A stretch of 63,785 nt of DNA from a virus. Lineage: Duplodnaviria > Caudoviricetes. The notes beneath the pieces are model-generated. The model was given only the letters and a program-made list of their open reading frames with translations, was not told the origin of the DNA and did no database searches. Both the position numbers and the translations under genes were made by a program. The DNA is taken from the IMG/VR virus record IMGVR_UViG_3300032157_000216, positions 1 through 63,785 of that record; one strand, given 5' to 3'. Positions 6,802 through 25,313 of this stretch are shown here, one piece after another; positions within the stretch are counted from its first letter, which is position 1; each line of letters opens with the position of its first letter.

Positions 6802-6867
6802 CAGAATGCAGTTTTTTACGTTTGATTTTCAGTCAAATTTTATGTAATTTTTGCAGGATGCATTCTT
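6802..6867 (-). ncRNA. CAGCAA-scaffold RNA copy E1, carrying a Phe(GAA) anticodon stem-loop
   Basis: AAG-AATGCATC-CTGCAA...TTTGA-CTGAAAA-TCAAA...TGCATTCTG. Confidence 0.75.
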
Positions 6868-6878
6868 TAGAATGAAAA

Positions 6879-6961
6879 CAGAATTCTTGTAACAAGCCCT
6901 GTTACAGGCCTGCTTGGAGTTGAACCAAGTTTATCCATAGGATGTTGCTGGAAGAATTCTT
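6879..6961 (-). ncRNA. CAGCAA-scaffold RNA copy E2, carrying a T-arm plus hairpin
   Basis: AAG-AATTCTTC-CAGCAA...CTTGG-TTCAACT-CCAAG...GAATTCTG. Confidence 0.75.
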
Positions 6962-7233: not shown

Positions 7234-7869
7234 TTATACTCTACCTTTTTTCCAGCCAGGTAAAATATCTATATCTTTCTTTACTTTCTTATTTATAATA
7301 CCATCTGTAATCCACATAGTACCATATTGTGAACTTTTCTCTCCACAACTTTGTGGACGCGGACCGGACATTTTCTTTTTTGTTTCATCAGTATGTTTCT
7401 TACCTTTAAAACTTGGTTCCCACCAAATGCCGCCGTGTTCCTTATATTTTTCTTTAAATACCTCGACACCTTTTTTATTTTGATTCTGCATTCTTTCTTT
7501 ATACGTCTTCAGTTCATCTCCCTCTAGAGATTTAACCTTATCGCTGAATGCCTTACCACCCAGTGTTGCTCCGCGAACACTATCTTCACGAACAAAACCT
7601 CCACGACCTCCCGGCTTTAAGTTGTAAACTTCCGGGTTTTTAAGAAACTCCTCATTTACAACAACTCTTTCTTTTAAAAGAGCAGATTCATAATCATCAA
7701 AATATTCTAAAATCTCTTTTTTAAAATTCTCTCTACCATATTTCTTAATAGCGTATCGAATTCTTTTTCCAGAACCCAGATACATATTATCTGTGGTTTT
7801 TGCTTTATGGATCCCAATATAAATCTTATTATTAATAAGATTGGTAGTTTTATACAAGTAAATAATCAT
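7234..7869 (-). CDS. GIY-YIG free-standing homing endonuclease (Seg-like, NUMOD3-type repeat)
   Basis: IYLYKTTNLINNKIYIG, YLGSG, YN and KGKKHTDETKKKMS. Confidence 0.9.
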   Translation of the reverse strand: MIIYLYKTTNLINNKIYIGIHKAKTTDNMYLGSGKRIRYAIKKYGRENFKKEILEYFDDYESALLKERVVVNEEFLKNPEVYNLKPGGRGGFVREDSVRGATLGGKAFSDKVKSLEGDELKTYKERMQNQNKKGVEVFKEKYKEHGGIWWEPSFKGKKHTDETKKKMSGPRPQSCGEKSSQYGTMWITDGIINKKVKKDIDILPGWKKGRV

Positions 7870-8385: not shown

Positions 8386-8449
8386 CAGAGTGCGCTTTCT
8401 TTTCAAGATAATGGTTTGAAATTTTTAATTGTTTGCGGTAAACACTCTT
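8386..8449 (-). ncRNA. CAGCAA-scaffold RNA copy E3, carrying a degenerate hairpin
   Basis: AAG-AGTGTTTA-CCGCAA...TTTCAA-ACCATTATC-TTGAAA...GCACTCTG. Confidence 0.7.
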
Positions 8450-12532: not shown

Positions 12533-12602
12533 TACGCATTGCAGGATTCGAACCTGCGTCCCCACCGGGTCTGGTGGCGTTCTACCTTTGAACTAAATCC
12601 GT
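12533..12602 (-). ncRNA. tRNA-like RNA with a 6-nt loop in place of the anticodon loop
   Basis: Canonical D and T arms; CCACC-AGACCC-GGTGG; no CCA. Confidence 0.6.
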
Positions 12603-12995: not shown

Positions 12996-13559
12996 TCAAC
13001 CTGGCTTGTTTGCTGTTCTTTTTCGTTCTCTTATCCAAAGTGCAGCAATCCATTTTTCGCCTTTGGTAACAAGTCTGCCATGATGTGCAGTTGAACTTTT
13101 TATCTTCAAATCTGGATTGCTATAATCAAAGAAGAGAAATTTACCTTCTTCGGGTTCAACCCAAACATTGAGCAATGGAAAATCTGTAGCACCACCTTCA
13201 AAATTATCATTAAGATAAATTATTATTGTTGCTATTCTATTACCATTTTCCTCACACGCCTGCAGAGCTTCGAAACTTTTGAAAAAATCAGAATGAAGTT
13301 TAAATTCATCACCCATTTTATATCGGATAACTTCTAAGTCTTCAAATCGATCTTTATCTATTTCTAATATAGAACTGATTCTATCACAAATTTTTGATAC
13401 AAGTAAATTATTACTATCAGTTCTAGCACTCCATGATCCTCTCATTCCTTTCGGAATAGCGCCATATCCAGAGTAACTTAATAACGTGGAGTCTCTTAGC
13501 TTGTCTTTATATTCTTCAATTAAAGACTGACATTCTTCATGTGTAAGAAAATTCATCAT
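12996..13559 (-). CDS. Prolyl 4-hydroxylase-like 2OG-Fe(II) oxygenase
   Basis: FLTHEEC, RY..GDEFKLHSD, RIATIIIYLND.FEGGATDFP and H.GRLVTKGEKW. Confidence 0.9.
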   Translation of the reverse strand: MMNFLTHEECQSLIEEYKDKLRDSTLLSYSGYGAIPKGMRGSWSARTDSNNLLVSKICDRISSILEIDKDRFEDLEVIRYKMGDEFKLHSDFFKSFEALQACEENGNRIATIIIYLNDNFEGGATDFPLLNVWVEPEEGKFLFFDYSNPDLKIKSSTAHHGRLVTKGEKWIAALWIRERKRTANKPG

Positions 13560-14366: not shown

Positions 14367-15746
14367 TTACACTTCCTTATTGATGAAATATTTATTTCCT
14401 ATTTCTTCTCTATTTATCTTTGTAAATCCCCAACGCCGTTCCATACAATGCCAATTGCTACAAGGGTCATATAATGAGGTGTGATTTTTACCACATTTTG
14501 CGGTATACTCAAAAATATCTTCTAATCCCAATTGTATGATAGCATCAACAATATGATATTTCTTTAGAAGTAAGAATGGTAATCTCACATAATCAGGAAA
14601 ATTTGTTGGCCTTACTGGCCCACCATCGAGCCCACTCCCTGGACCGGGTATTTCATTAGAACCCGAAAAGAGAAACATATTATTAGAATATTTTCGTTTT
14701 TCATCAATATTAGTGAAATAATTATGTAACCCGGGTGGAACCTGATCCTGAGGAATTCTATCTACGGGTCCAGGATGAGTTGTAAGTTTTAAAATGTTAC
14801 CATTAACCTTATTTCTAATAATATCAATCATTAGTTCAGCATTGGCTTTATCATCGGTAATTGCTTGACTGTTGAGACTACCGTTATCGCTTGTAATCAT
14901 TATCGGTTTTATGAAATAAGGTACAACCTGTTGGCTATTAAGCCCTCCTAGAATATACAATAATAAAGAGCTATCCATTCCACCGGTAAATCCGACGATT
15001 ATAGTATTATCCGGTTCACGATTCACTGGCAATTCTACTTTCATTATCCGTCTATCGTTTTCCGGACCAACTTCTAGTTCAAACGACGTATCAACAAGTG
15101 GTGGATAAATTATAGGATTTATGTCAACATATTTACTATGATCTAAAAACAATGTAGTTCTTGAATATTCTCTAATCCAAATTGTAGCAAGCCATTTCTC
15201 ACCTTTAGTGACAAGTTTTCCACAATGTTCTGATGCCCGTTTTACGAACGGGTCTGGATCACTGTAATCAAAGTATAGAATACTTCCCTTTTTAGGAGAA
15301 ACCCATAATCTTAACCAAGGAAAATCTGTATCTCCACCTTCAAAATCATCATTGAGATACATCAAAACTGTTGCAATTCTATAACCACCTTTTTCAATAT
15401 TTTTAGCACCATTAGGCCCAGTAATATAATCGGTGTGTCTCTTAAATTCTTCACCAGGAAGATATCTTATAACAGTAATTTTATCAAATCTCGATTTATC
15501 AATTCCTATAATTTTAGAAATTTTATCTCTTATCTGTATACCTATTAAACTTTCATCATCTACAAACGATGCTGAACAATTTCTATGTTTAATAGAAACT
15601 TCAGGATCACCAGAATCTCCATAAATCTTACCGGGTACTAGGTTTGCTCTTGCTTCTTCTATTAATGAATTACATTCCTCATCAGTAAGAGCATTCTCCA
15701 TTAATTTAACTGGTGGTGTTATTCTTAATTCTTGAAATTCTGGCAT
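14367..15746 (-). CDS. Fusion of a prolyl 4-hydroxylase-like oxygenase and a QueC-like PP-loop ATPase domain
   Basis: N half HTD...HCG...KGEKW; C half FTGGMDSS and a Cys-rich tail KC-x10-CSNWHCMERR. Confidence 0.75.
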   Translation of the reverse strand: MPEFQELRITPPVKLMENALTDEECNSLIEEARANLVPGKIYGDSGDPEVSIKHRNCSASFVDDESLIGIQIRDKISKIIGIDKSRFDKITVIRYLPGEEFKRHTDYITGPNGAKNIEKGGYRIATVLMYLNDDFEGGDTDFPWLRLWVSPKKGSILYFDYSDPDPFVKRASEHCGKLVTKGEKWLATIWIREYSRTTLFLDHSKYVDINPIIYPPLVDTSFELEVGPENDRRIMKVELPVNREPDNTIIVGFTGGMDSSLLLYILGGLNSQQVVPYFIKPIMITSDNGSLNSQAITDDKANAELMIDIIRNKVNGNILKLTTHPGPVDRIPQDQVPPGLHNYFTNIDEKRKYSNNMFLFSGSNEIPGPGSGLDGGPVRPTNFPDYVRLPFLLLKKYHIVDAIIQLGLEDIFEYTAKCGKNHTSLYDPCSNWHCMERRWGFTKINREEIGNKYFINKEV

Positions 15747-16074: not shown

Positions 16075-17052
16075 TCATCCGGCATTATCTCTTCTTTGTT
16101 GTTTAAGTAAACGATGTTCAGTCTGTTCAATGTATCTCATAATTTCTTGATACATTATTTTATGAAATCTCTTAAACACAGCATATTCTTTATAGTTATC
16201 AGGATTGTGAAATTTATTATTCACATACCATCTTAATTCCTGTGGTAATTCTTTTTTATATTCAGGAAAATGTCGTACATCCATATCATCTAAATCTGCA
16301 TTTTCAATAAACTTTAATGCTTCTTGTTGAGCAAATGCAGGTATTTCCTGAGGACTGGCCCTATATATCTTATCTTCTTCTGGAGTAGTCTCTTCACCAC
16401 GATGCATCTTGCTGATTATCGAATGAAACTTTTCTTTATTTGGTTCAAGATAACTTCTATATTCGGTACGTCCTCTACCTTGTCTCGATTGAGCTGAATG
16501 TTGCATAACATGCACAAGTTCATGCACAACTATCGATATTAATTTGTTTATCTCGCTATCTAATGAGCTTTTATAATACAAACCATAGTTATCTACCGTT
16601 TTGAAGGATCTAAACATTGTTTCAACTATTTTATGTTCCTCTTCGACATTATCTAATGTAACTTGATACATTGATTCAGATATTTCTTTTGCTAAATCAC
16701 TAAGATGGTTATTATTTATTGCCATATCGGTGCCGGATGCATAGCCACCGGTCTTCATATCTTCAAATCTAACACGGCAATCAATGCCAGTATGTGCTTT
16801 TATGATATTTGAAATGCCTTGAGATACCCTTACATCAAGTTGTTCCTTCAACCACTTCTCAACAAACTCCATTGGTTTAGACAATGAAACATTTTTATTT
16901 GCTTCTTCCTTTATTTCAGGATCAAGCTGTGGTTCTTTATAACCTATCTGATGAACACTATCTAAAATCTCGCTCTTTATTTCCTTTTTCAAAGAATTTC
17001 TCAAAGTGGTTGCACTAATCGCTTCAGATAATGAAAAATCAAATAATCTCAT
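16075..17052 (-). CDS. Hypothetical protein with a HExxH zinc-metallopeptidase motif
   Basis: VVHELVHVMQ and a distal EIPAFAQQ. Confidence 0.65.
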   Translation of the reverse strand: MRLFDFSLSEAISATTLRNSLKKEIKSEILDSVHQIGYKEPQLDPEIKEEANKNVSLSKPMEFVEKWLKEQLDVRVSQGISNIIKAHTGIDCRVRFEDMKTGGYASGTDMAINNNHLSDLAKEISESMYQVTLDNVEEEHKIVETMFRSFKTVDNYGLYYKSSLDSEINKLISIVVHELVHVMQHSAQSRQGRGRTEYRSYLEPNKEKFHSIISKMHRGEETTPEEDKIYRASPQEIPAFAQQEALKFIENADLDDMDVRHFPEYKKELPQELRWYVNNKFHNPDNYKEYAVFKRFHKIMYQEIMRYIEQTEHRLLKQQRRDNAG

Positions 17053-17079
17053 ACTGCTATTTATCAGTATTTTATTGTT

Positions 17080-17155
17080 TGGACGCTCGGGTGAGAATTT
17101 AACTCACACAATACCGTTTTGCAGACGGCCCCGTTAAACATTCCGGCACCGAGCG
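17080..17155 (-). tRNA. tRNA-Cys(GCA)
   Basis: GCCGT-CTGCAAA-ACGGT; T73; CCA. Confidence 0.85.
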
Positions 17156-17161
17156 ATTAAT

Positions 17162-17235
17162 TGGGGTGAGGGTGGGTTACGATCCCACGCCCGTCGTTTC
17201 ACAGACGACAATTCTGCCATTAAACTAACCTCACC
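17162..17235 (-). tRNA. tRNA-His(GTG)
   Basis: GTCGT-CTGTGAA-ACGAC; G-1:C73; CCA. Confidence 0.9.
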
Positions 17236-17242
17236 ATAATCT

Positions 17243-18016
17243 TTATTGATAATTTTCTGGTTGCATTATCCAGATATCATCTGTTAACCTTCTTGGATCT
17301 TCAAACCAACCATATGGCATCTTGAAATCTCCGTTAAGTCCCCAACCGGTTCCCCAAGAGTTTCTAACCCATACATATGGTTCTTTAACATCTCTTTCAT
17401 CATAACCAACTGCGGTTACAGCATGGCCGCCAACAATATAATCTTCGTCTGTTGGTAATCTAACCCATCCTGTTGTCGCAACTTCATCGCTCATAAAATA
17501 TTCAGGGACTGAGAATCCAAACACAACAGGTATTCTCAATGCCAATGCTGTCTTTATATCAGTGATGGTATCTAATCTTTGATAAGATCTAATCATCGGA
17601 GGTATAAGTTTAGCATTTTTATACGCTCTTGTCGACGGTTTCCTTGCAAATCTTTCAATGATGTATGGCCAAACTGCCTCAGTTGCTACGCCATACTTAC
17701 AAATACCTTTGATGACATCACGAATATATGCACCATCATCGTACTTTGTATTATTTTCTATTTTTCGAGCAGTATAATACGCCATCAACCTAGAATATTG
17801 AACACCTGTGCCCAATATTATTTCTAATGCTGTGGTTGCTGCATTTCCGGTGCAGGAACCTAACTGACCTTGATCTTCAACTTGATTATTTACACTCAAT
17901 GGAGCAATATAATCAGGAAGTATTACCGCTGAAGAGGCAGTAAAGAGCTTATCTCTATGATCTGCTACCTCCGGTTTCCATTTAAATACACGTGGTTTAA
18001 GCATGATGGCCTCCAT
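17243..18016 (-). CDS. Papain-family (C1A) cysteine peptidase
   Basis: DQGQLGSCTG, GGHAV and RNSWG..WG..G. Confidence 0.9.
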   Translation of the reverse strand: MEAIMLKPRVFKWKPEVADHRDKLFTASSAVILPDYIAPLSVNNQVEDQGQLGSCTGNAATTALEIILGTGVQYSRLMAYYTARKIENNTKYDDGAYIRDVIKGICKYGVATEAVWPYIIERFARKPSTRAYKNAKLIPPMIRSYQRLDTITDIKTALALRIPVVFGFSVPEYFMSDEVATTGWVRLPTDEDYIVGGHAVTAVGYDERDVKEPYVWVRNSWGTGWGLNGDFKMPYGWFEDPRRLTDDIWIMQPENYQ

Positions 18017-18052
18017 ATAAATTATTATTTATATGAATGACCTAAAATAAAA

Positions 18053-18156
18053 CAGGTTGTTGTTGCTAACCCGGGACTCGAACCCACGCAACACCCCCAG
18101 CGGGACAGGCACGAAAAGTTTTGGCTCGTATATTTTTGTTTGCTGTAATCAACCTT
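18053..18156 (-). ncRNA. CAGCAA-scaffold RNA copy E4, carrying hairpins and a T-loop module
   Basis: AAG-GTTGATTA-CAGCAA...TGTTGC-GT-GGG-TTCGAGT-CCC...GCAACA-A-CAACCTG. Confidence 0.7.
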
Positions 18157-18167
18157 CAGAAACTAAA

Positions 18168-18287
18168 CAGGATACCTTTTTAGATAGGCTATCAACCTAT
18201 TGCCAAACCATTTGGCGTACAACGCAGAAGCGTAGTGTTGGAATTGAACCAACTAGTCTTATTAAGACTTTTGCTGCATGTATCCTT
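18168..18287 (-). ncRNA. CAGCAA-scaffold RNA copy E5, carrying a circularly permuted tRNA-Ile(GAT)
   Basis: Inside the AGGATAC/GTATCCT stem the order is T arm, acceptor 3' strand, TTCT, acceptor 5' strand, D arm, anticodon arm. Confidence 0.75.
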
Positions 18288-18292
18288 CAAAC

Positions 18293-18369
18293 TGGTACCC
18301 CCGGAGAGATTCGAACTCCCATCCAACACGTTCTAAGCGTGTCCGCACTACCAATTAGCGTACGGGGGC
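18293..18369 (-). tRNA. tRNA-Leu(TAG), short variable loop
   Basis: ACACG-CTTAGAA-CGTGT; CCA. Confidence 0.9.
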
Positions 18370-18534
18370 AAAATAATTTTCGGAATAGCGGCGATGTAAG
18401 GTCACATACCTAGTCACATAATCCTGTTGGTCTGTTGTGTGGCCACACAACATTCCACGTTTGTTTCGAAGTAGGTACCCGTCTACCAGCCCATGTGGAC
18501 CCAATAGAACATCCTCGTATACTTCAAATTATAT

Positions 18535-18610
18535 TGGCCCGACCTCTCTGTTACGATCAGAGTTCTCATGTTCTTCAGACATGCGTGAGGACCACCTTCA
18601 CCAAGGTCGG
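18535..18610 (-). tRNA. tRNA-Phe(GAA), divergent body
   Basis: CATGT-CTGAAGA-ACATG; T-loop ATCGTAA; G73; CCA. Confidence 0.8.
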
Positions 18611-18613
18611 ATA

Positions 18614-18687
18614 TGCATACCATCGAGGATTCGAACCCCGACTTTAAGGTTTTGGAGACCCAACGACTGCCGTTATCTTAATGGTAT
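18614..18687 (-). tRNA. tRNA-Trp(CCA), CCA end not encoded
   Basis: Loop CTCCAAA; ATACCAT/ATGGTAT acceptor; G73. Confidence 0.8.
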
Positions 18688-19311
18688 ATTTTTCTTTATA
18701 TAATCCCAACTCAACTGAGTTTTATCTAGGATCATAATCATTATTTTATTTTGTTCTATTACTCTTTCAATCTTTTCTTTATCTAAAATGCGAACATACG
18801 GATTCTTCGGATCTAGATATAGATCATAATCTATTAAATAAAAATCAGGATAATATCTTCTCTTTTGATTATTTAAATCAAAATAAAGCAATGGTGATGG
18901 TCTATTCCATCTAACTTTATTTTTATCTAAATCAATCGCTAATTCATATTCCCAGTTTGATTCAAATCTAACACCATTATACAAAATTCTTTTAGATGCT
19001 GTATAACGATTTTCCATCTTACTCTGCATTATAGACGATATTCTTTCTTTACATTCCAAAGTATGAGGAGTTCTATGTGGAATATATTCACCAATTCGAA
19101 TCTTTTCTTTAAAAGTTAAAGATCCCTGCATTATACTTTCATCAGTAAACTTAGTTTTACCTTTTTTAGATGATATTTTTCCCTTCATCCCATTCACATA
19201 ATTTCTATTTGGATTTATCGGGCAACACCTTTCGTGATTTCTATGACTATTCTCATTATGACATTCTTTATCACAAAATCTACATGATAACATTAACTTC
19301 TCCGGTAGCAC
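18673..19311 (-). CDS. Putative free-standing PD-(D/E)xK (TnsA-like) endonuclease
   Basis: N-terminal CxxC...H...C; FESNWE, YYPDFYL and LYLDPK. Confidence 0.75.
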   Translation of the reverse strand: MLPEKLMLSCRFCDKECHNENSHRNHERCCPINPNRNYVNGMKGKISSKKGKTKFTDESIMQGSLTFKEKIRIGEYIPHRTPHTLECKERISSIMQSKMENRYTASKRILYNGVRFESNWEYELAIDLDKNKVRWNRPSPLLYFDLNNQKRRYYPDFYLIDYDLYLDPKNPYVRILDKEKIERVIEQNKIMIMILDKTQLSWDYIKKNIPLR

Positions 19312-19421
19312 AGTTATTTATCATAGACCGCTGTGCTACCGAGATATATTTGAATCAGGCTTCACACCTAAATTGTCTGTTGCCTAGTGCATTATTCAGG
19401 CTTACAGATAACCCCTCGATT

Positions 19422-19497
19422 TGGCTCCGCAAGAACGATTCGAACGCTCCTCACTTGGTTAACAGCCAAGGGTACTCACCGAGAATACGATTGCGGA
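19422..19497 (-). tRNA. tRNA-Asn(GTT)
   Basis: CTTGG-CTGTTAA-CCAAG; G73; CCA. Confidence 0.9.
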
Positions 19498-19508
19498 ATT
19501 GAATTATC

Positions 19509-19574
19509 TGATGTATATAGGAATCGAACCTAGACTTGGCTTTAGTTCAGCTTTGCCGTCCACGGCATACATCA
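19509..19574 (-). ncRNA. Miniature tRNA-like RNA or tRNA pseudogene
   Basis: TGATGTAT/ATACATCA terminal stem and TAGG-TTCGATT-CCTA T arm; degenerate anticodon arm; no CCA. Confidence 0.5.
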
Positions 19575-19578
19575 TATT

Positions 19579-19652
19579 TGGTAGGTCTTGAAGGAGTCAA
19601 ACCTTCGTAGGCCGCCTATCAAGCAGCTATTCTATCATTGAATTAAAGACCC
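19579..19652 (-). tRNA. tRNA-Ile(GAT)
   Basis: GCTGC-TTGATAG-GCGGC; CCA. Confidence 0.9.
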
Positions 19653-19743
19653 AAATTGGTGCCGAGCCAGGACTTAATGCATTACAGAAAGGGCCTGGCC
19701 TACCGGCGATCTGCTGAATGCAGTAACCTTTCTTGCTAAATTT

Positions 19744-19819
19744 TGGAGCAGGTGGCGGGAATCGAACCCGCGCCTTTAGTTTGGAAGACTATGATGCTAC
19801 CATTAGACACCACACCTGC
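19744..19819 (-). tRNA. tRNA-Gly(TCC)
   Basis: Loop CTTCCAA; T73; CCA. Confidence 0.9.
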
Positions 19820-19945
19820 ATATTCGTGCCTGGACTTAGTAACGCGCCTAACAGACTTGCGCGACTTACGGACGAGTATACATGTACAAGGTCTACTCGT
19901 CTATCTTTTGTTCTTACCAAGCCCTTTCGAGCTTGGATTTTTCAT

Positions 19946-20974
19946 TTAGACCGGAGCACCGATCCAAATCATCAGGCCCATGCCCTTGGTAAGCTTACGG
20001 TTAACCGACGTCGATTGGACGTAGATTTCATAGTTACCATGCTGGCCCGGAGCAACCTTAACATCACCGGAATGCGGCAAGCCGAGAAGATCACGCGCAC
20101 CATATCCGCTGTAAACAGCACCAGTCGTCTTATCACGAACGGCAATCTGTTTATAGCCTTGAACAGTTTCGGTCTTCTTCAGTTCATAAAATGCACAACC
20201 CTTAACAAAGGTAACGCCTTGATCATTCACGAAGTCACGAATCTGGCAACCGTCCCACTGAGCATCCACTTCATACACATCCACCTGCTTAGAAATATCA
20301 ACCAGAGTGGCTTTTACTTCCTTCAGGCTGACATTACTCATGTCAGTATAGAATTTGTCAGTGCTCCTTACACCAGTAGCACGAGCTGCATAGAAGCCCT
20401 TGAACGCACTCTTGGTAGCAGCGGTAGAAACTTGAACACCACGTTCAGATTGTTCCCATTCCTGAATGTTACCATCAGGAATACCATATTGGGTAAGCGA
20501 ACGCTTATAACCCTTCGGTACACGGAACACAAACGTCCAACGATCAGTTGCTTGAAGTTCCTTGATCATCTTTGCAACGGATGAACCCGAATGCTTACAG
20601 CTTGCATTTTCCTCACCATCAGTGGTGGTAAACACAACAAAAGAAACATCAGGATCATCGGCATCCGGAACAGCTTTCAATTGCTCAACCAAGTCACCCA
20701 CCGCATCAAACAACGGAGTTCCGTGGCCCCTGGCGCTATAACTCGATTCGGTAATCGGCTTCAACGCAGTGACAGACGAATTCTTGATAACGGTACGTAC
20801 CTGATTGGTATTACCATATCCAAGTTCAACAACCGATACAATAGTATCGATGCCATGATTGGCTGCTTCCTCTTTGATCGACACAATGTTATCATTGTAG
20901 TCACGTGCGGCGTGACGTGCAATAGTAGCCATCGAGCCGGAGTGATCTCGTGCAAAACCAATGTAGTTCTTCAT
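19946..20974 (-). CDS. von Willebrand factor A (vWA) domain protein
   Basis: MIDAS motif DHSGSM, GTPLFDAV and TDGEEN; GAAAGG RBS. Confidence 0.85.
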   Translation of the reverse strand: MKNYIGFARDHSGSMATIARHAARDYNDNIVSIKEEAANHGIDTIVSVVELGYGNTNQVRTVIKNSSVTALKPITESSYSARGHGTPLFDAVGDLVEQLKAVPDADDPDVSFVVFTTTDGEENASCKHSGSSVAKMIKELQATDRWTFVFRVPKGYKRSLTQYGIPDGNIQEWEQSERGVQVSTAATKSAFKGFYAARATGVRSTDKFYTDMSNVSLKEVKATLVDISKQVDVYEVDAQWDGCQIRDFVNDQGVTFVKGCAFYELKKTETVQGYKQIAVRDKTTGAVYSGYGARDLLGLPHSGDVKVAPGQHGNYEIYVQSTSVNRKLTKGMGLMIWIGAPV

Positions 20975-21006: not shown

Positions 21007-21035
21007 ACTATACAATAAGTACATCACTTTGTCAA
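21007..21035 (-). promoter_or_regulatory. Sigma70-type promoter of the vWA gene
   Basis: TTGACA-17 nt-TATAGT. Confidence 0.75.
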
Positions 21036-21547
21036 CTGGTGTCGCTAATTCGTTTTAATGCTTTTCGCCCCTTGCCTTTATTCTTAGCACCAAAAGTTGG
21101 TGTTTGTGAATGGCAATTTGGACACAATAATCTAACGTTAGATGGCAAATTATTATTTGAAAATCCATTGATATGATCTAAATGAAGACTCAATGGTTCT
21201 CCCGACCAATCTGATATTCCACATTTCATACATTTGTATCCAAATCTTTCAATTAAGACTTGTTTTATTGTCGAATTTTCTACTAATTCGCCTTTATCAA
21301 ATTTTTCTGATCTTCGTTTTTTACAAGTATCTATTCTTTGTTCTACATTCTTAGACACCAATAATGATTTTTCTGTCCTAATCTTATTAGTCTTTCTATT
21401 AGACTCTAATAGTCTAGAGGATTGTTTAGCCGAAATAGATTTCTTTAGTTTATCTTTATCTGTCCATGTTCTACTATTAGCACATTTTCTACAACAATAA
21501 ACCCCAGGCTTATTATGTAAATTTGGACATTTAGGACATTGTTTCAT
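21032..21547 (-). CDS. HNH homing endonuclease
   Basis: CMKCG, LHLDHING..NN...N.RLLCPNCH. Confidence 0.9.
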   Translation of the reverse strand: MKQCPKCPNLHNKPGVYCCRKCANSRTWTDKDKLKKSISAKQSSRLLESNRKTNKIRTEKSLLVSKNVEQRIDTCKKRRSEKFDKGELVENSTIKQVLIERFGYKCMKCGISDWSGEPLSLHLDHINGFSNNNLPSNVRLLCPNCHSQTPTFGAKNKGKGRKALKRISDTS

Positions 21548-22067: not shown

Positions 22068-22141
22068 TGGTCCCTCCGCCAAGAATTGAACTTGGAATTA
22101 GCGATTATCGGTCGCTTAGTATACCATTTACTTAAAGAGGG
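22068..22141 (-). tRNA. tRNA-Ile(GAT), second copy (C33)
   Basis: AGCGA-CCGATAA-TCGCT; CCA. Confidence 0.85.
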
Positions 22142-23560: not shown

Positions 23561-23617
23561 CAGAGTACACATTTGGCTTCATTTACAGTGAATTTTTGGA
23601 TTGCTGAAGGTACTCTT
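23561..23617 (-). ncRNA. CAGCAA-scaffold RNA copy E7, carrying a Tyr(GTA) anticodon stem-loop
   Basis: AAG-AGTACCTT-CAGCAA...TTCA-CTGTAAA-TGAA...GTACTCTG. Confidence 0.8.
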
Positions 23618-23623
23618 TAAACT

Positions 23624-23699
23624 TGGCGCCGCTGAAGGGAATCAAACCCTCCTAAATCCGCTAGACAGGCGGTTGCACTCATCAGAATGCGACAACGGC
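23624..23699 (-). tRNA. tRNA-Asp(GTC) (T37)
   Basis: CCGC-CTGTCTA-GCGG; G73; CCA. Confidence 0.85.
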
Positions 23700-23708
23700 A
23701 TGATAAAA

Positions 23709-23763
23709 CAGTGTTCTTATTTTCAATTAAAAGTTGAATTTTGAATTTGCTGAACGAACACTT
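23709..23763 (-). ncRNA. CAGCAA-scaffold RNA copy E8, carrying a Lys(TTT) anticodon stem-loop
   Basis: AAG-TGTTCGTT-CAGCAA...TTCAA-CTTTTAA-TTGAA...GAACACTG. Confidence 0.8.
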
Positions 23764-24177: not shown

Positions 24178-24262
24178 TGGTGGACCCTGATAGATTTGAA
24201 CTACCGAAACCAGAAGGTGCCATCTTCACTGATGGTGGGTTTGCCCGCTCCCCTAAAGGCCC
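24178..24262 (-). ncRNA. tRNA-like RNA with an Ala-type acceptor and a 6-nt loop
   Basis: GGGCCTT/AGGGTCC (G3:U70), A73, CCA; CCATC-AGTGAA-GATGG. Confidence 0.65.
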
Positions 24263-24520: not shown

Positions 24521-25075
24521 CTATTCGTTTACGGAATAGAAAATATTTAAGGAAGTCGTAACATCAATCTTAAACCATTCGCCAACTCTTTTAAGAGTAG
24601 ACAGATTCATTTTATCTATGATAAAAGATTCCATCTTTCTACGATCAGTTACCCATCGAAGTCCTACAATAGCATATCGTTTTTCAGGATCATATTGATT
24701 ATAGACGCTAAGTCTCTTTTCATAATCAAAAGCCATTCCAACTTTGACCCAACCTGGAAATGATTCATTCTCAATCAAATAAACAAAACCTTCTTTAATC
24801 AAAGTCTGTTCACCGTGAACTCGAATTTCGTCTTTATATTTTTGACGATTATCCAGGAGTTTTCTATATAATATTTCTTCGTTAGTAACCATTGGTTTAG
24901 TTACTGGTCTTACTTTCTCCTTAAAATTTACAATTCTCTTCTTAGATTCGATTATCTTAATCTTATCTTTCTTTTTCTTCTTAAGTTGCCCAGTTTCGAT
25001 CAAAAATCTATTATGGATCTTTGTTTTATAGTAAAGATCAGCATAATTACCAATGCTCGAAATTTTCTTACTCAT
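24521..25075 (-). CDS. T5orf172-type (GIY-YIG superfamily) protein
   Basis: GFVYLIEN..FPGWVKVG.A....KRL..YN and GEWF; start moved to MSKK, downstream of the terminator. Confidence 0.75.
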   Translation of the reverse strand: MSKKISSIGNYADLYYKTKIHNRFLIETGQLKKKKKDKIKIIESKKRIVNFKEKVRPVTKPMVTNEEILYRKLLDNRQKYKDEIRVHGEQTLIKEGFVYLIENESFPGWVKVGMAFDYEKRLSVYNQYDPEKRYAIVGLRWVTDRRKMESFIIDKMNLSTLKRVGEWFKIDVTTSLNIFYSVNE

Positions 25076-25088
25076 ATATTTAATATCA

Positions 25089-25120
25089 ACAAAAAAGCCG
25101 CTTAGTTTCCTATGCGGCTT
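25089..25120 (-). terminator. Attenuator terminator
   Basis: AAGCCGC...GCGGCTT followed by TTTTGTT; its 5' arm is shared with the antiterminator. Confidence 0.85.
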
Positions 25121-25151
25121 CCTTTTATAAGTGTTCTGGATACTTTTATCT

Positions 25152-25313
25152 TTAGTTTCCAGACTCCTTGTAGAAGGAAGCCATCGTAATTGGATCTTGT
25201 TCATTACTAGGTGTGAACCCAAACGACCAATAACCTTTGCCGGCGCAGAGGCGCTTGGAGGCTAAGGCCACCATATGCATCTCATTAGCAGTTTTCAGTT
25301 GTCGTTCAATCAT
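25152..25313 (-). CDS. Putative 53 aa attenuator leader peptide containing all 20 amino acids
   Basis: MIERQLKTANEMHMVALASKRLCAGKGYWSFGFTPSNEQDPITMASFYKESGN; its 3' codons form one arm of an antiterminator. Confidence 0.7.
   Translation of the reverse strand: MIERQLKTANEMHMVALASKRLCAGKGYWSFGFTPSNEQDPITMASFYKESGN

Follow-up and report, generated by a model that had tools for sequence, protein, structure and literature searches.

Our analysis identifies a conserved small-RNA gene in the transfer RNA (tRNA) array of a large phage, whose product contains all the arms of a tRNA in a rotated order. The gene lies in the virus record IMGVR_UViG_3300032157_000216, a stretch of 63,785 nt that represents an uncultured virus in part (completeness rated at about 19%) and whose full length we refer to as the window; it occupies the minus strand from 18286 to 18169 and is 118 nt long. 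A covariance model built entirely from other phages matches it from end to end, compensatory changes are seen in all five of its conserved helices, and it belongs to a family in which different tRNA parts are carried on a common frame. From these sequence features we favor, with slightly better than even confidence, the interpretation that the element is a sealed, non-decoding tRNA mimic, most likely serving as a protein decoy.

Read 5' to 3' on the minus strand, the element opens with one strand of a 7-bp terminal stem (AGGATAC, 18280-18286), which pairs with GTATCCT at 18175-18169; three nucleotides past this strand comes the motif CAGCAA (18271-18276, in the context AUG-CAGCAA-AA), which together with the terminal stem makes up what we call the frame. 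A small hairpin (GTCTT-AAT-AAGAC, 18256-18268), variable or absent in relatives, is followed by the T arm (GTTGG-TTCAATT-CCAAC, 18237-18253) and by an acceptor stem closed by a loop (ACTACGC-TTCT-GCGTTGT, 18219-18236, with strands at 18236-18230 and 18225-18219). Six of the seven acceptor positions pair, the single U-U mismatch being pair 5-68 in tRNA numbering, and the would-be RNase P site has U before it and G after it. The D arm (GCCA-AATGGTT-TGGC, 18202-18216) contains the elbow GG and is preceded by AC, whose A is position 8, and followed by A26. Next comes an anticodon-type arm (ATAGG-TTGATAG-CCTAT, 18184-18200) with U33, GAU and A37, and the element ends in an A-rich joiner, CTAAAAAG, and the GTATCCT strand of the terminal stem (together 18169-18183), beyond which the sequence continues GTTTAG. 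The original prediction, made from the letters alone, had named these elements as a complete permuted tRNA-Ile(GAU) inside a scaffold at the variable-region position, with an anticodon loop shared with a tRNA-Ile gene nearby. Each was located on the minus strand as described: the terminal stem does leave the tRNA body at the variable region, and the loop UUGAUAG is identical to the 7-nt loop of the tRNA-Ile gene at 19582-19652.

The minimum-energy fold contains all six helices, reproducing every one that had been proposed, at -36.5 kcal/mol against -23.2 +/- 3.0 kcal/mol in shuffled sequences (z -4.46; 0 of 200 shuffles equally stable). Standard tools do not see the element: ARAGORN makes no call in linear or circular mode (0 genes), the miss in circular mode being due to a 48-nt variable-region insert that exceeds its model, the Rfam tRNA model gives no match over 18169-18286 at E values up to 10, and no transfer-messenger RNA (tmRNA) family model gives a match covering it. 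A loose count of T arms followed by a closable 7-bp hairpin was uninformative and was set aside, with six in the window, four of them around ordinary tRNAs, and a mean of 0.72 in shuffles.

Megablast with positions 17000-20000 and blastn with 18054-18292 as query both came back empty from 50,697 phage records, and relatives were therefore sought by motif pattern and covariance model. A first pattern, comprising CAGCAA, a gap and a T arm and drawn from the two T-arm copies in the window, found 51 viral loci, about half of which have the same architecture; a second pattern without CAGCAA added more. Two MAFFT alignments (A1 and A2) put the acceptor 3' strands of several rows in the wrong place, and four sequences that aligned well (A3) served to build the first model. 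With a cutoff of E 1e-6 this four-sequence model collected the 27 distinct sequences used for counting pairs, one row of which (window 6803-6960) spans two adjacent copies. In this alignment 97.5% of 680 cells are paired, compared with 66.6% after shuffling and 35-48% when the partners are slid by one to three columns, and 25 of 28 pairs have changed on both sides, with support for all five helices. Both-side changes affect every pair of the terminal stem (7/7; 97.4% of cells paired), the acceptor helix (7/7; 95.7%), the D stem (4/4) and the anticodon-type stem (5/5, in the 12-16 rows possessing that arm), and G-U pairs are tolerated on the element's strand. The acceptor is closed by a loop in all 27 sequences. 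CAGCAA stands at its usual offset in 16 rows, the other 11 lacking an exact copy there; its invariance in alignment A1 reflects a search pattern that selected for the motif.

An unbiased test comes from a model (R2) that holds no window sequence and was built from 25 rows of other phages, representing 24 places, one of which is present twice. R2 matches the element end to end with 91.0 bits (E 3.3e-20) and a short sister copy in the window with 44.1 bits over 6855-6960; its noise level, measured on phage T4 tRNA dimers, is about 31 bits (30.7-31.8). At 39 bits or more it recovers 27 of the 51 viral loci, 15 of which had contributed to the model, and none of 80 prokaryote loci obtained with the same pattern from species-representative genomes (114 pattern matches), where the best score was 29.8 bits. 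That best prokaryote score belongs to a contig of a Eubacteriaceae metagenome-assembled genome (L180, 6134-6266), where two TTACAGCAA/TAACAGCAA frames occur and a T arm is present in one of them; this contig, perhaps a prophage or phage sequence binned in error, is the sole hint of the family beyond viral contigs. Among cultured phages, Erwinia phage pEa_SNUABM_19 has two unannotated copies (304383-304502 and 303595-303723) that combine a T arm with a closed acceptor and a D arm, while the Pseudomonas jumbo phage PA5oct gave no match with model R1. The element is a real conserved small-RNA gene, preserved above chance, and the family to which it belongs is, across the loci scanned, confined to phage tRNA arrays.

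The frame recurs with differing contents in the tRNA arrays of large phages, and the scaffold named in the original prediction is real, with further copies of stem plus CAGCAA in the window. The simplest cargo is a single hairpin, giving a total of 53-66 nt. Larger cargoes comprise a hairpin, T arm and closed acceptor (window 6880-6960 and six relatives) or these parts with a D arm, and the full cargo adds an anticodon-type arm, as in the 118-nt element and the loci L004, L048, L057, L089, L085, L024, L083 and L022. The family is thus a widespread one of modular phage RNAs presenting tRNA parts on a common frame, and the element in the window presents them all. The short sister copy (6880-6960, minus strand) follows a tRNA-Leu(UAA) gene and has the hairpin, T arm and closed acceptor without a D or anticodon arm (z -3.09). 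Four simple frames of 53-64 nt on the same strand (23562-23616, 23710-23762, 6803-6866 and 8387-8448) hold a hairpin only. Taken one by one, simple frames fold weakly (z -0.9 to -2.1), and the support for them is recurrence rather than energy; nine of twelve seven-nucleotide loops in simple frames have the form Y-U-NNN-A-N. The loops CTGTAAA, CTTTTAA and CTGAAAA in those of the window resemble the anticodon loops of tRNAs for Tyr, Lys and Phe.

A second permutation also occurs, in which the frame is followed by an anticodon-type hairpin, the T arm, the closed acceptor and the D arm. Copies of this kind include L014 9724-9838, L048 4836-4949, L026 3855-3968, L039 6769-6884 and L040 6303-6419, among others, with the hairpin triplets GCA, UCC, GAA, GCU and UGU. 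The acceptor loop TTGGTC is kept in four of these five copies despite their differing stems. Members of the family stand in tandem and adjoin tRNAs, with U-rich linkers resembling GTTT(T)A between them; in 12 of 38 copies a tRNA called by ARAGORN ends no more than 60 nt upstream on the same strand, and six of these 12 are tRNA-Leu. Transposon-like terminal inverted repeats were considered as an explanation of the frame and rejected: copies within a genome share pairing and motif rather than sequence, and G-U pairs occur.

Comparison of the full forms speaks to the question of decoding. Their nine anticodon positions read GAU, UGU, CAU, UCA, AAA, CAU, UAA, UUG and CUU (L024 having been re-read by eye), while the 7-nt loop always begins Y32-U33 and position 37 is a purine in eight of nine, the AAA loop having C37. 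Among counterparts whose orthology was judged from neighboring genes only, L014 9855-9965 lies 5 nt behind a tRNA-Leu(UAG) gene, as does the element at a similar distance, and where the anticodon arm would stand it carries a hairpin of 4 bp whose loop is 5 nt; the L048 copy shares its stem, T arm and following module with the element, yet reads CAU. The acceptor 3' strand of the element runs into TTCT with no CCA, which 26 of 29 tRNA genes in the window template. U would serve as its discriminator, in contrast to the A73-CCA ends of the two ordinary tRNA-Ile(GAU) genes of the window (19582-19652 and 22068-22141), and its position 8 is A, where 21 of 27 relatives have U.

We propose the following model for the activity of the element. 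Its upstream neighbor on the minus strand is a tRNA-Leu(UAG) gene with a templated CCA (18293-18369; called by ARAGORN and scoring 57.6 bits with the Rfam tRNA model), separated from it by a 6-nt linker, GTTTGA (18292-18287), and the next open reading frame downstream is a protease gene (17243-18016). From the tRNA-Leu gene to this reading frame no promoter-like or terminator-like site was found on the minus strand, which makes co-transcription with tRNA-Leu(UAG) plausible. Nucleases active in processing the array would then free the RNA by cutting in the U-rich linkers. Its D loop retains GG and its T loop UUC, which suggests that it could fold into an L shape, with its acceptor sealed by the 4-nt loop. 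In this form it would not decode; it may instead bind, and hence titrate or recruit, proteins that recognize the shape of a tRNA and its anticodon loop, and its closed ends would shield it both from exonucleases and from charging. The most likely targets, and here we are guessing, are host tRNA-directed nucleases or other tRNA-binding enzymes of defense or modification.

The original prediction had left a choice between an unchargeable full tRNA mimic and a permuted tRNA gene maturing through a circle. The former agrees with the data, as compensatory changes keep the fold, the acceptor is closed throughout the aligned relatives, the anticodon varies or is absent and ordinary tRNA-Ile(GAU) genes are already present twice in the window; the latter finds no support in the sequence, since the termini form a plain 7-bp helix with no bulge-helix-bulge, no CCA follows the acceptor and position 8 is A. 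That the element is a working two-piece or permuted tRNA-Ile decoding AUY we regard as very unlikely. RNase P would have to cut 5' of G(+1) in the closed acceptor, the loop remnant be trimmed to U73 and CCA be added; the resulting pair of chains, or else a circle formed by ligation and opened within the acceptor, would be held together by the acceptor and terminal stems and charged. According to Chen et al. (2014; PMC4201824), RNase P cleaves a 7-bp-acceptor YrlA RNA of Mycobacterium smegmatis in vitro, and this RNA acquires CCA in vivo. Such a route would also be in keeping with the presence of four arms and elbow nucleotides, a canonical U33-GAU-A37 loop, a 7-bp acceptor with U(-1) and G(+1), correctly placed U-CCA in L085 and L083, and a permuted tmRNA gene in the related array L032 (RF04321, 125.2 bits). 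It is at odds, however, with the untemplated CCA, the U discriminator and the A at position 8, with redundancy beside two tRNA-Ile(GAU) genes, with an anticodon that is unconserved (including AAA with C37) or missing in counterparts, and with the many family members that have no D arm, no anticodon arm or neither. Bacteria are not known to have a tRNA splicing endonuclease, which further disfavors a working tRNA.

Bacterial YrlA, which the original prediction had invoked, does indeed present a T arm, a closed acceptor and a D arm in this order on a terminal stem; the topology holds while membership does not. We consider it quite unlikely that the element is a YrlA-type Y RNA that binds the Ro60/Rsr ring of the host and tethers an exoribonuclease. 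Phage-encoded YrlAs are described by Chen et al. (2014; PMC4201824), and the YrlA model of Rfam aligns end to end with L014 9851-9966 (26.4 bits) and partially with L026 (29.6 bits), but the gathering score, 69, is far from reached; the sole window match (15.8 bits, E 6.7) is out of register at 18243-18349, and 15 more loci gave nothing at the gathering level. In the L014 alignment the second, Ro-binding helix of the model is unpaired. The motif GNCGAAN0-1G is absent from the element and was found in none of 27 sequences in the 5' half and in one of 27 near the 3' end, and neither an extra anticodon arm nor members consisting of an anticodon stem-loop alone have a place in a Y RNA model. The position of the element would also suit a role in cis, with no function as a free RNA, either as tRNA-shaped punctuation by which the array transcript attracts RNase P, RNase Z or RNase E for the maturation of tRNA-Leu or of the mRNA downstream, or as a stabilizer: it lies 6 nt behind tRNA-Leu and ahead of the protease gene, nothing resembling a promoter or terminator was found in the interval, a tRNA stands within 60 nt upstream of the 12 copies noted above, half of them tRNA-Leu, and GTTT(T)A linkers flank copies. 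We judge this unlikely all the same, because a processing signal requires neither a canonical anticodon arm, nor a D arm bearing the elbow, nor a conserved CAGCAA, and because 26 of 38 copies have no called tRNA just upstream (although ARAGORN misses some) and copies occur in tandem. Finally, an array so rich in homing-endonuclease genes (GIY-YIG, HNH, T5orf172) and duplicated tRNAs could in principle leave debris, namely a tRNA pseudogene scrambled by recombination or homing-endonuclease traffic. Compensatory changes in all five helices across 27 sequences, the score of 91 bits with a model made from other phages and the tolerance of G-U pairs make this explanation, already disfavored, highly improbable.

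Several points nevertheless weigh against a sealed, non-decoding decoy. The acceptor is held at exactly 7 bp, with U(-1) in 14 and G(+1) in 17 of 27 sequences, the element having both, and its loop starts with U-CCA in L085 and L083, which are related to each other; such features would be expected of a stem that is opened and receives a CCA end, and they hint at a tRNA-like life cycle over that of a purely sealed decoy. The T stem is 100% paired in the 27 sequences, with both-side changes in two of its five pairs and no variation in the other three, an invariance partly due to search patterns that fixed the T arm, and the alignment in which pairs were counted was itself fitted to the model, which favors structure. 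Neither the window nor 24 related virus records yielded a TROVE (Ro60/Rsr) gene; this absence is weak evidence against a Y RNA, as the records are mostly fragments, although two of the 24 are rated 100% complete. No defense nuclease is linked to the element by gene neighborhood, which leaves the target of the decoy a guess. The features of the 7-bp acceptor, taken together with the cleavage of M. smegmatis YrlA, make opening by RNase P a live possibility; by analogy with that RNA the sealed acceptor of the element might be opened in the same way, which we think possible but on balance doubtful.

The window belongs to a jumbo myovirus, with genes for a tail sheath, a portal and a major head protein; by major capsid protein its nearest isolate is PA5oct, at 79.2% identity. 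About 35 tRNA genes lie on the minus strand between 6.6 and 24.3 kb, some of them duplicated, with homing-endonuclease and other small genes between them. Interleaved with the array are GIY-YIG, HNH and T5orf172 homing-endonuclease-like genes (7234-7869, 21032-21547 and 24521-25222), two 2OG-Fe(II) oxygenase genes (12996-13559 and 14367-15746) and the gene downstream of the element, which encodes a papain-family protease. Between the element and this gene lies a second, weaker module of the form AGGTTG...CAGCAA...CAACCT (18054-18155, minus strand), which contains a T-arm-like hairpin and reaches the ribosome-binding site of the protease gene. The hairpin, GTGGG-TTCGAGT-CCCGG, sits inside a TGTTGC/GCAACA stem, and a look-alike follows the L048 copy; the module folds no better than shuffles (z +1.06), and R2 finds no match in it.

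These arrays have other notable features. A tRNA gene at 23627-23699, between two frames, was seen solely by a small-region Rfam scan (36.7 bits), and ARAGORN calls of 'tRNA-???' with two-base anticodons were made at 12533-12602 and 24178-24262. The ARAGORN lists for the related arrays L004 and L057 include tRNAs with the stop-reading anticodons CUA and UCA and one with AAA. Related arrays further contain GOLLD RNAs (201 and 196 bits; L037 7888-8305 and L032 8466-8886) and the permuted, two-piece tmRNA gene mentioned above (125 bits; L032 2201-2542), and related phage contigs have a group I intron (L048 2807-3016, 77.2 bits) and a RAGATH-18 RNA (L016 1547-1621, 62.2 bits).

The tRNA arrays of phages are usually read as spare parts for codon usage or against host defense, and annotation pipelines see standard tRNAs only. 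Our analysis shows that the gaps between these tRNAs hold conserved, modular, tRNA-derived RNAs that are missed by tRNA finders and Rfam models, and that this class includes a complete tRNA shape which, as encoded, is unchargeable. Should tRNA-binding proteins be titrated by the mimic, it would be a new phage counter-measure in the conflict over host tRNAs. A wider and distinctly speculative proposal, which we put forward tentatively and consider unlikely, is that jumbo phages encode a library of decoy RNAs, ranging from single anticodon stem-loops (Lys, Tyr, Phe, Val, Asn and others) to whole sealed tRNA bodies, which would absorb or misdirect host anticodon nucleases and other tRNA-targeting defenses outside translation; the element would be the full-length isoleucine version. 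In a still bolder variant RNase P would open the acceptor to give a natural two-piece tRNA, and if this were so the element would represent a natural split tRNA. An engineered 'tRNA scaffold' serves for expressing RNAs, and a tRNA body mounted on a variable-region helix is the inverse of that design, which gives the element practical interest.

Comparison with known systems places the element beside several other RNAs. The species 1 and 2 RNAs of phage T4 (rnaC and rnaD; NC_000866) are annotated as small stable RNAs, their function unknown, encoded where a tRNA cluster ends. The former (rnaC, L220 2909-3047) ends in a canonical T arm and folds very stably (z -4.57), and is a tRNA-derived RNA of a different kind. 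Neither is a member of the family: with filters off, R2 gives 9.6 bits (E 1.5) at 2866-2952, overlapping rnaC, and nothing over rnaD, and both differ from the element in having no stem-CAGCAA frame and no closed acceptor.

Circularly permuted tRNA genes were reportedly described by Soma and colleagues in 2007 in the red alga Cyanidioschyzon merolae, and are said to occur likewise in some archaea. These genes have a bulge-helix-bulge at their joined termini and pass through a circle, made by splicing endonuclease and ligase, to become ordinary tRNAs. The element resembles them in that its 3' half (T arm and acceptor 3' strand) is encoded ahead of the 5' half (acceptor 5' strand, D arm and anticodon arm). 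In contrast to them, it ends in an uninterrupted 7-bp helix that its flanks (A before, G after) do not extend, the linker between its halves is 4 nt and its breakpoint lies in the variable region; the absence of a bulge-helix-bulge speaks against a permuted tRNA gene of the algal or archaeal type. Two-piece tmRNA, whose circularly permuted biology Keiler and colleagues are said to have reported in 2000, offers a bacterial and phage precedent (RF04321) for a permuted tRNA-like domain with an acceptor opened by processing to leave two paired chains; the tag reading frame, pseudoknots and alanine charging of tmRNA are all absent from the element.

The frame alone, which is absent from Rfam 15, resembles the Class I RNAs of Dictyostelium (RF01414), which Kjellin et al. 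(2021; PMC7919456) describe as 42-65 nt long, with a DUSE promoter, and as unique to dictyostelids. These RNAs have a short stem, an 11-nt motif by its 5' strand, and a conserved AAG start and CUGU end (PMC7919456). The shared features are a short stem starting (A)AG and ending CUGU, the sequence CUU(A)CAGCAA and a variable A/U-rich interior; the element has the stem, the CAGCAA core and the ...CCUGU end, and matches the 11-nt motif in part (AUGCAGCAA). Two simple frames of the window match RF01414 over its full length with 31.3 and 23.8 bits, and the best score in relatives is 36.7, but no frame in the window or the relatives scanned reaches the gathering score of 41.5 bits. The settings also differ, as on the same account of the Class I RNAs the comparison is between phage tRNA arrays and amoeba genes with a DUSE promoter, and the element, at 118 nt, has a tRNA body as cargo. 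The resemblance may reflect convergence or kinship; the function of Class I RNAs is unknown, and the likeness provides a second system for probing the role of the motif.

The closest parallel is YrlA (RF02553), a tRNA-like Y RNA of bacteria and phages with an Rsr-binding module that has GNCGAAN0-1G on its 5' strand, as set out by Chen et al. (2014; PMC4201824). Both RNAs carry a permuted tRNA-like domain on a stem formed by the RNA ends, and both keep the elbow nucleotides; on the account of Chen et al., some YrlAs are phage-encoded, and the version of YrlA with a 7-bp acceptor is a substrate both for RNase P and for CCA-adding enzyme. The element differs in having an anticodon-type arm, as a result of which its terminal stem stands in the variable region rather than replacing the anticodon stem, and in having a CAGCAA frame without GNCGAAN0-1G or a Ro-binding helix, within a tRNA array; it is not a member of YrlA. 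A literature search of titles and the starts of abstracts found no paper on permuted tRNA genes of phages or on a CAGCAA-framed phage RNA. Permuted tRNA mimics are already known in YrlA, and the novelty here lies in a complete permuted form that includes an anticodon arm, in a terminal helix placed at the variable region and in a CAGCAA frame whose tRNA cargo is exchangeable.

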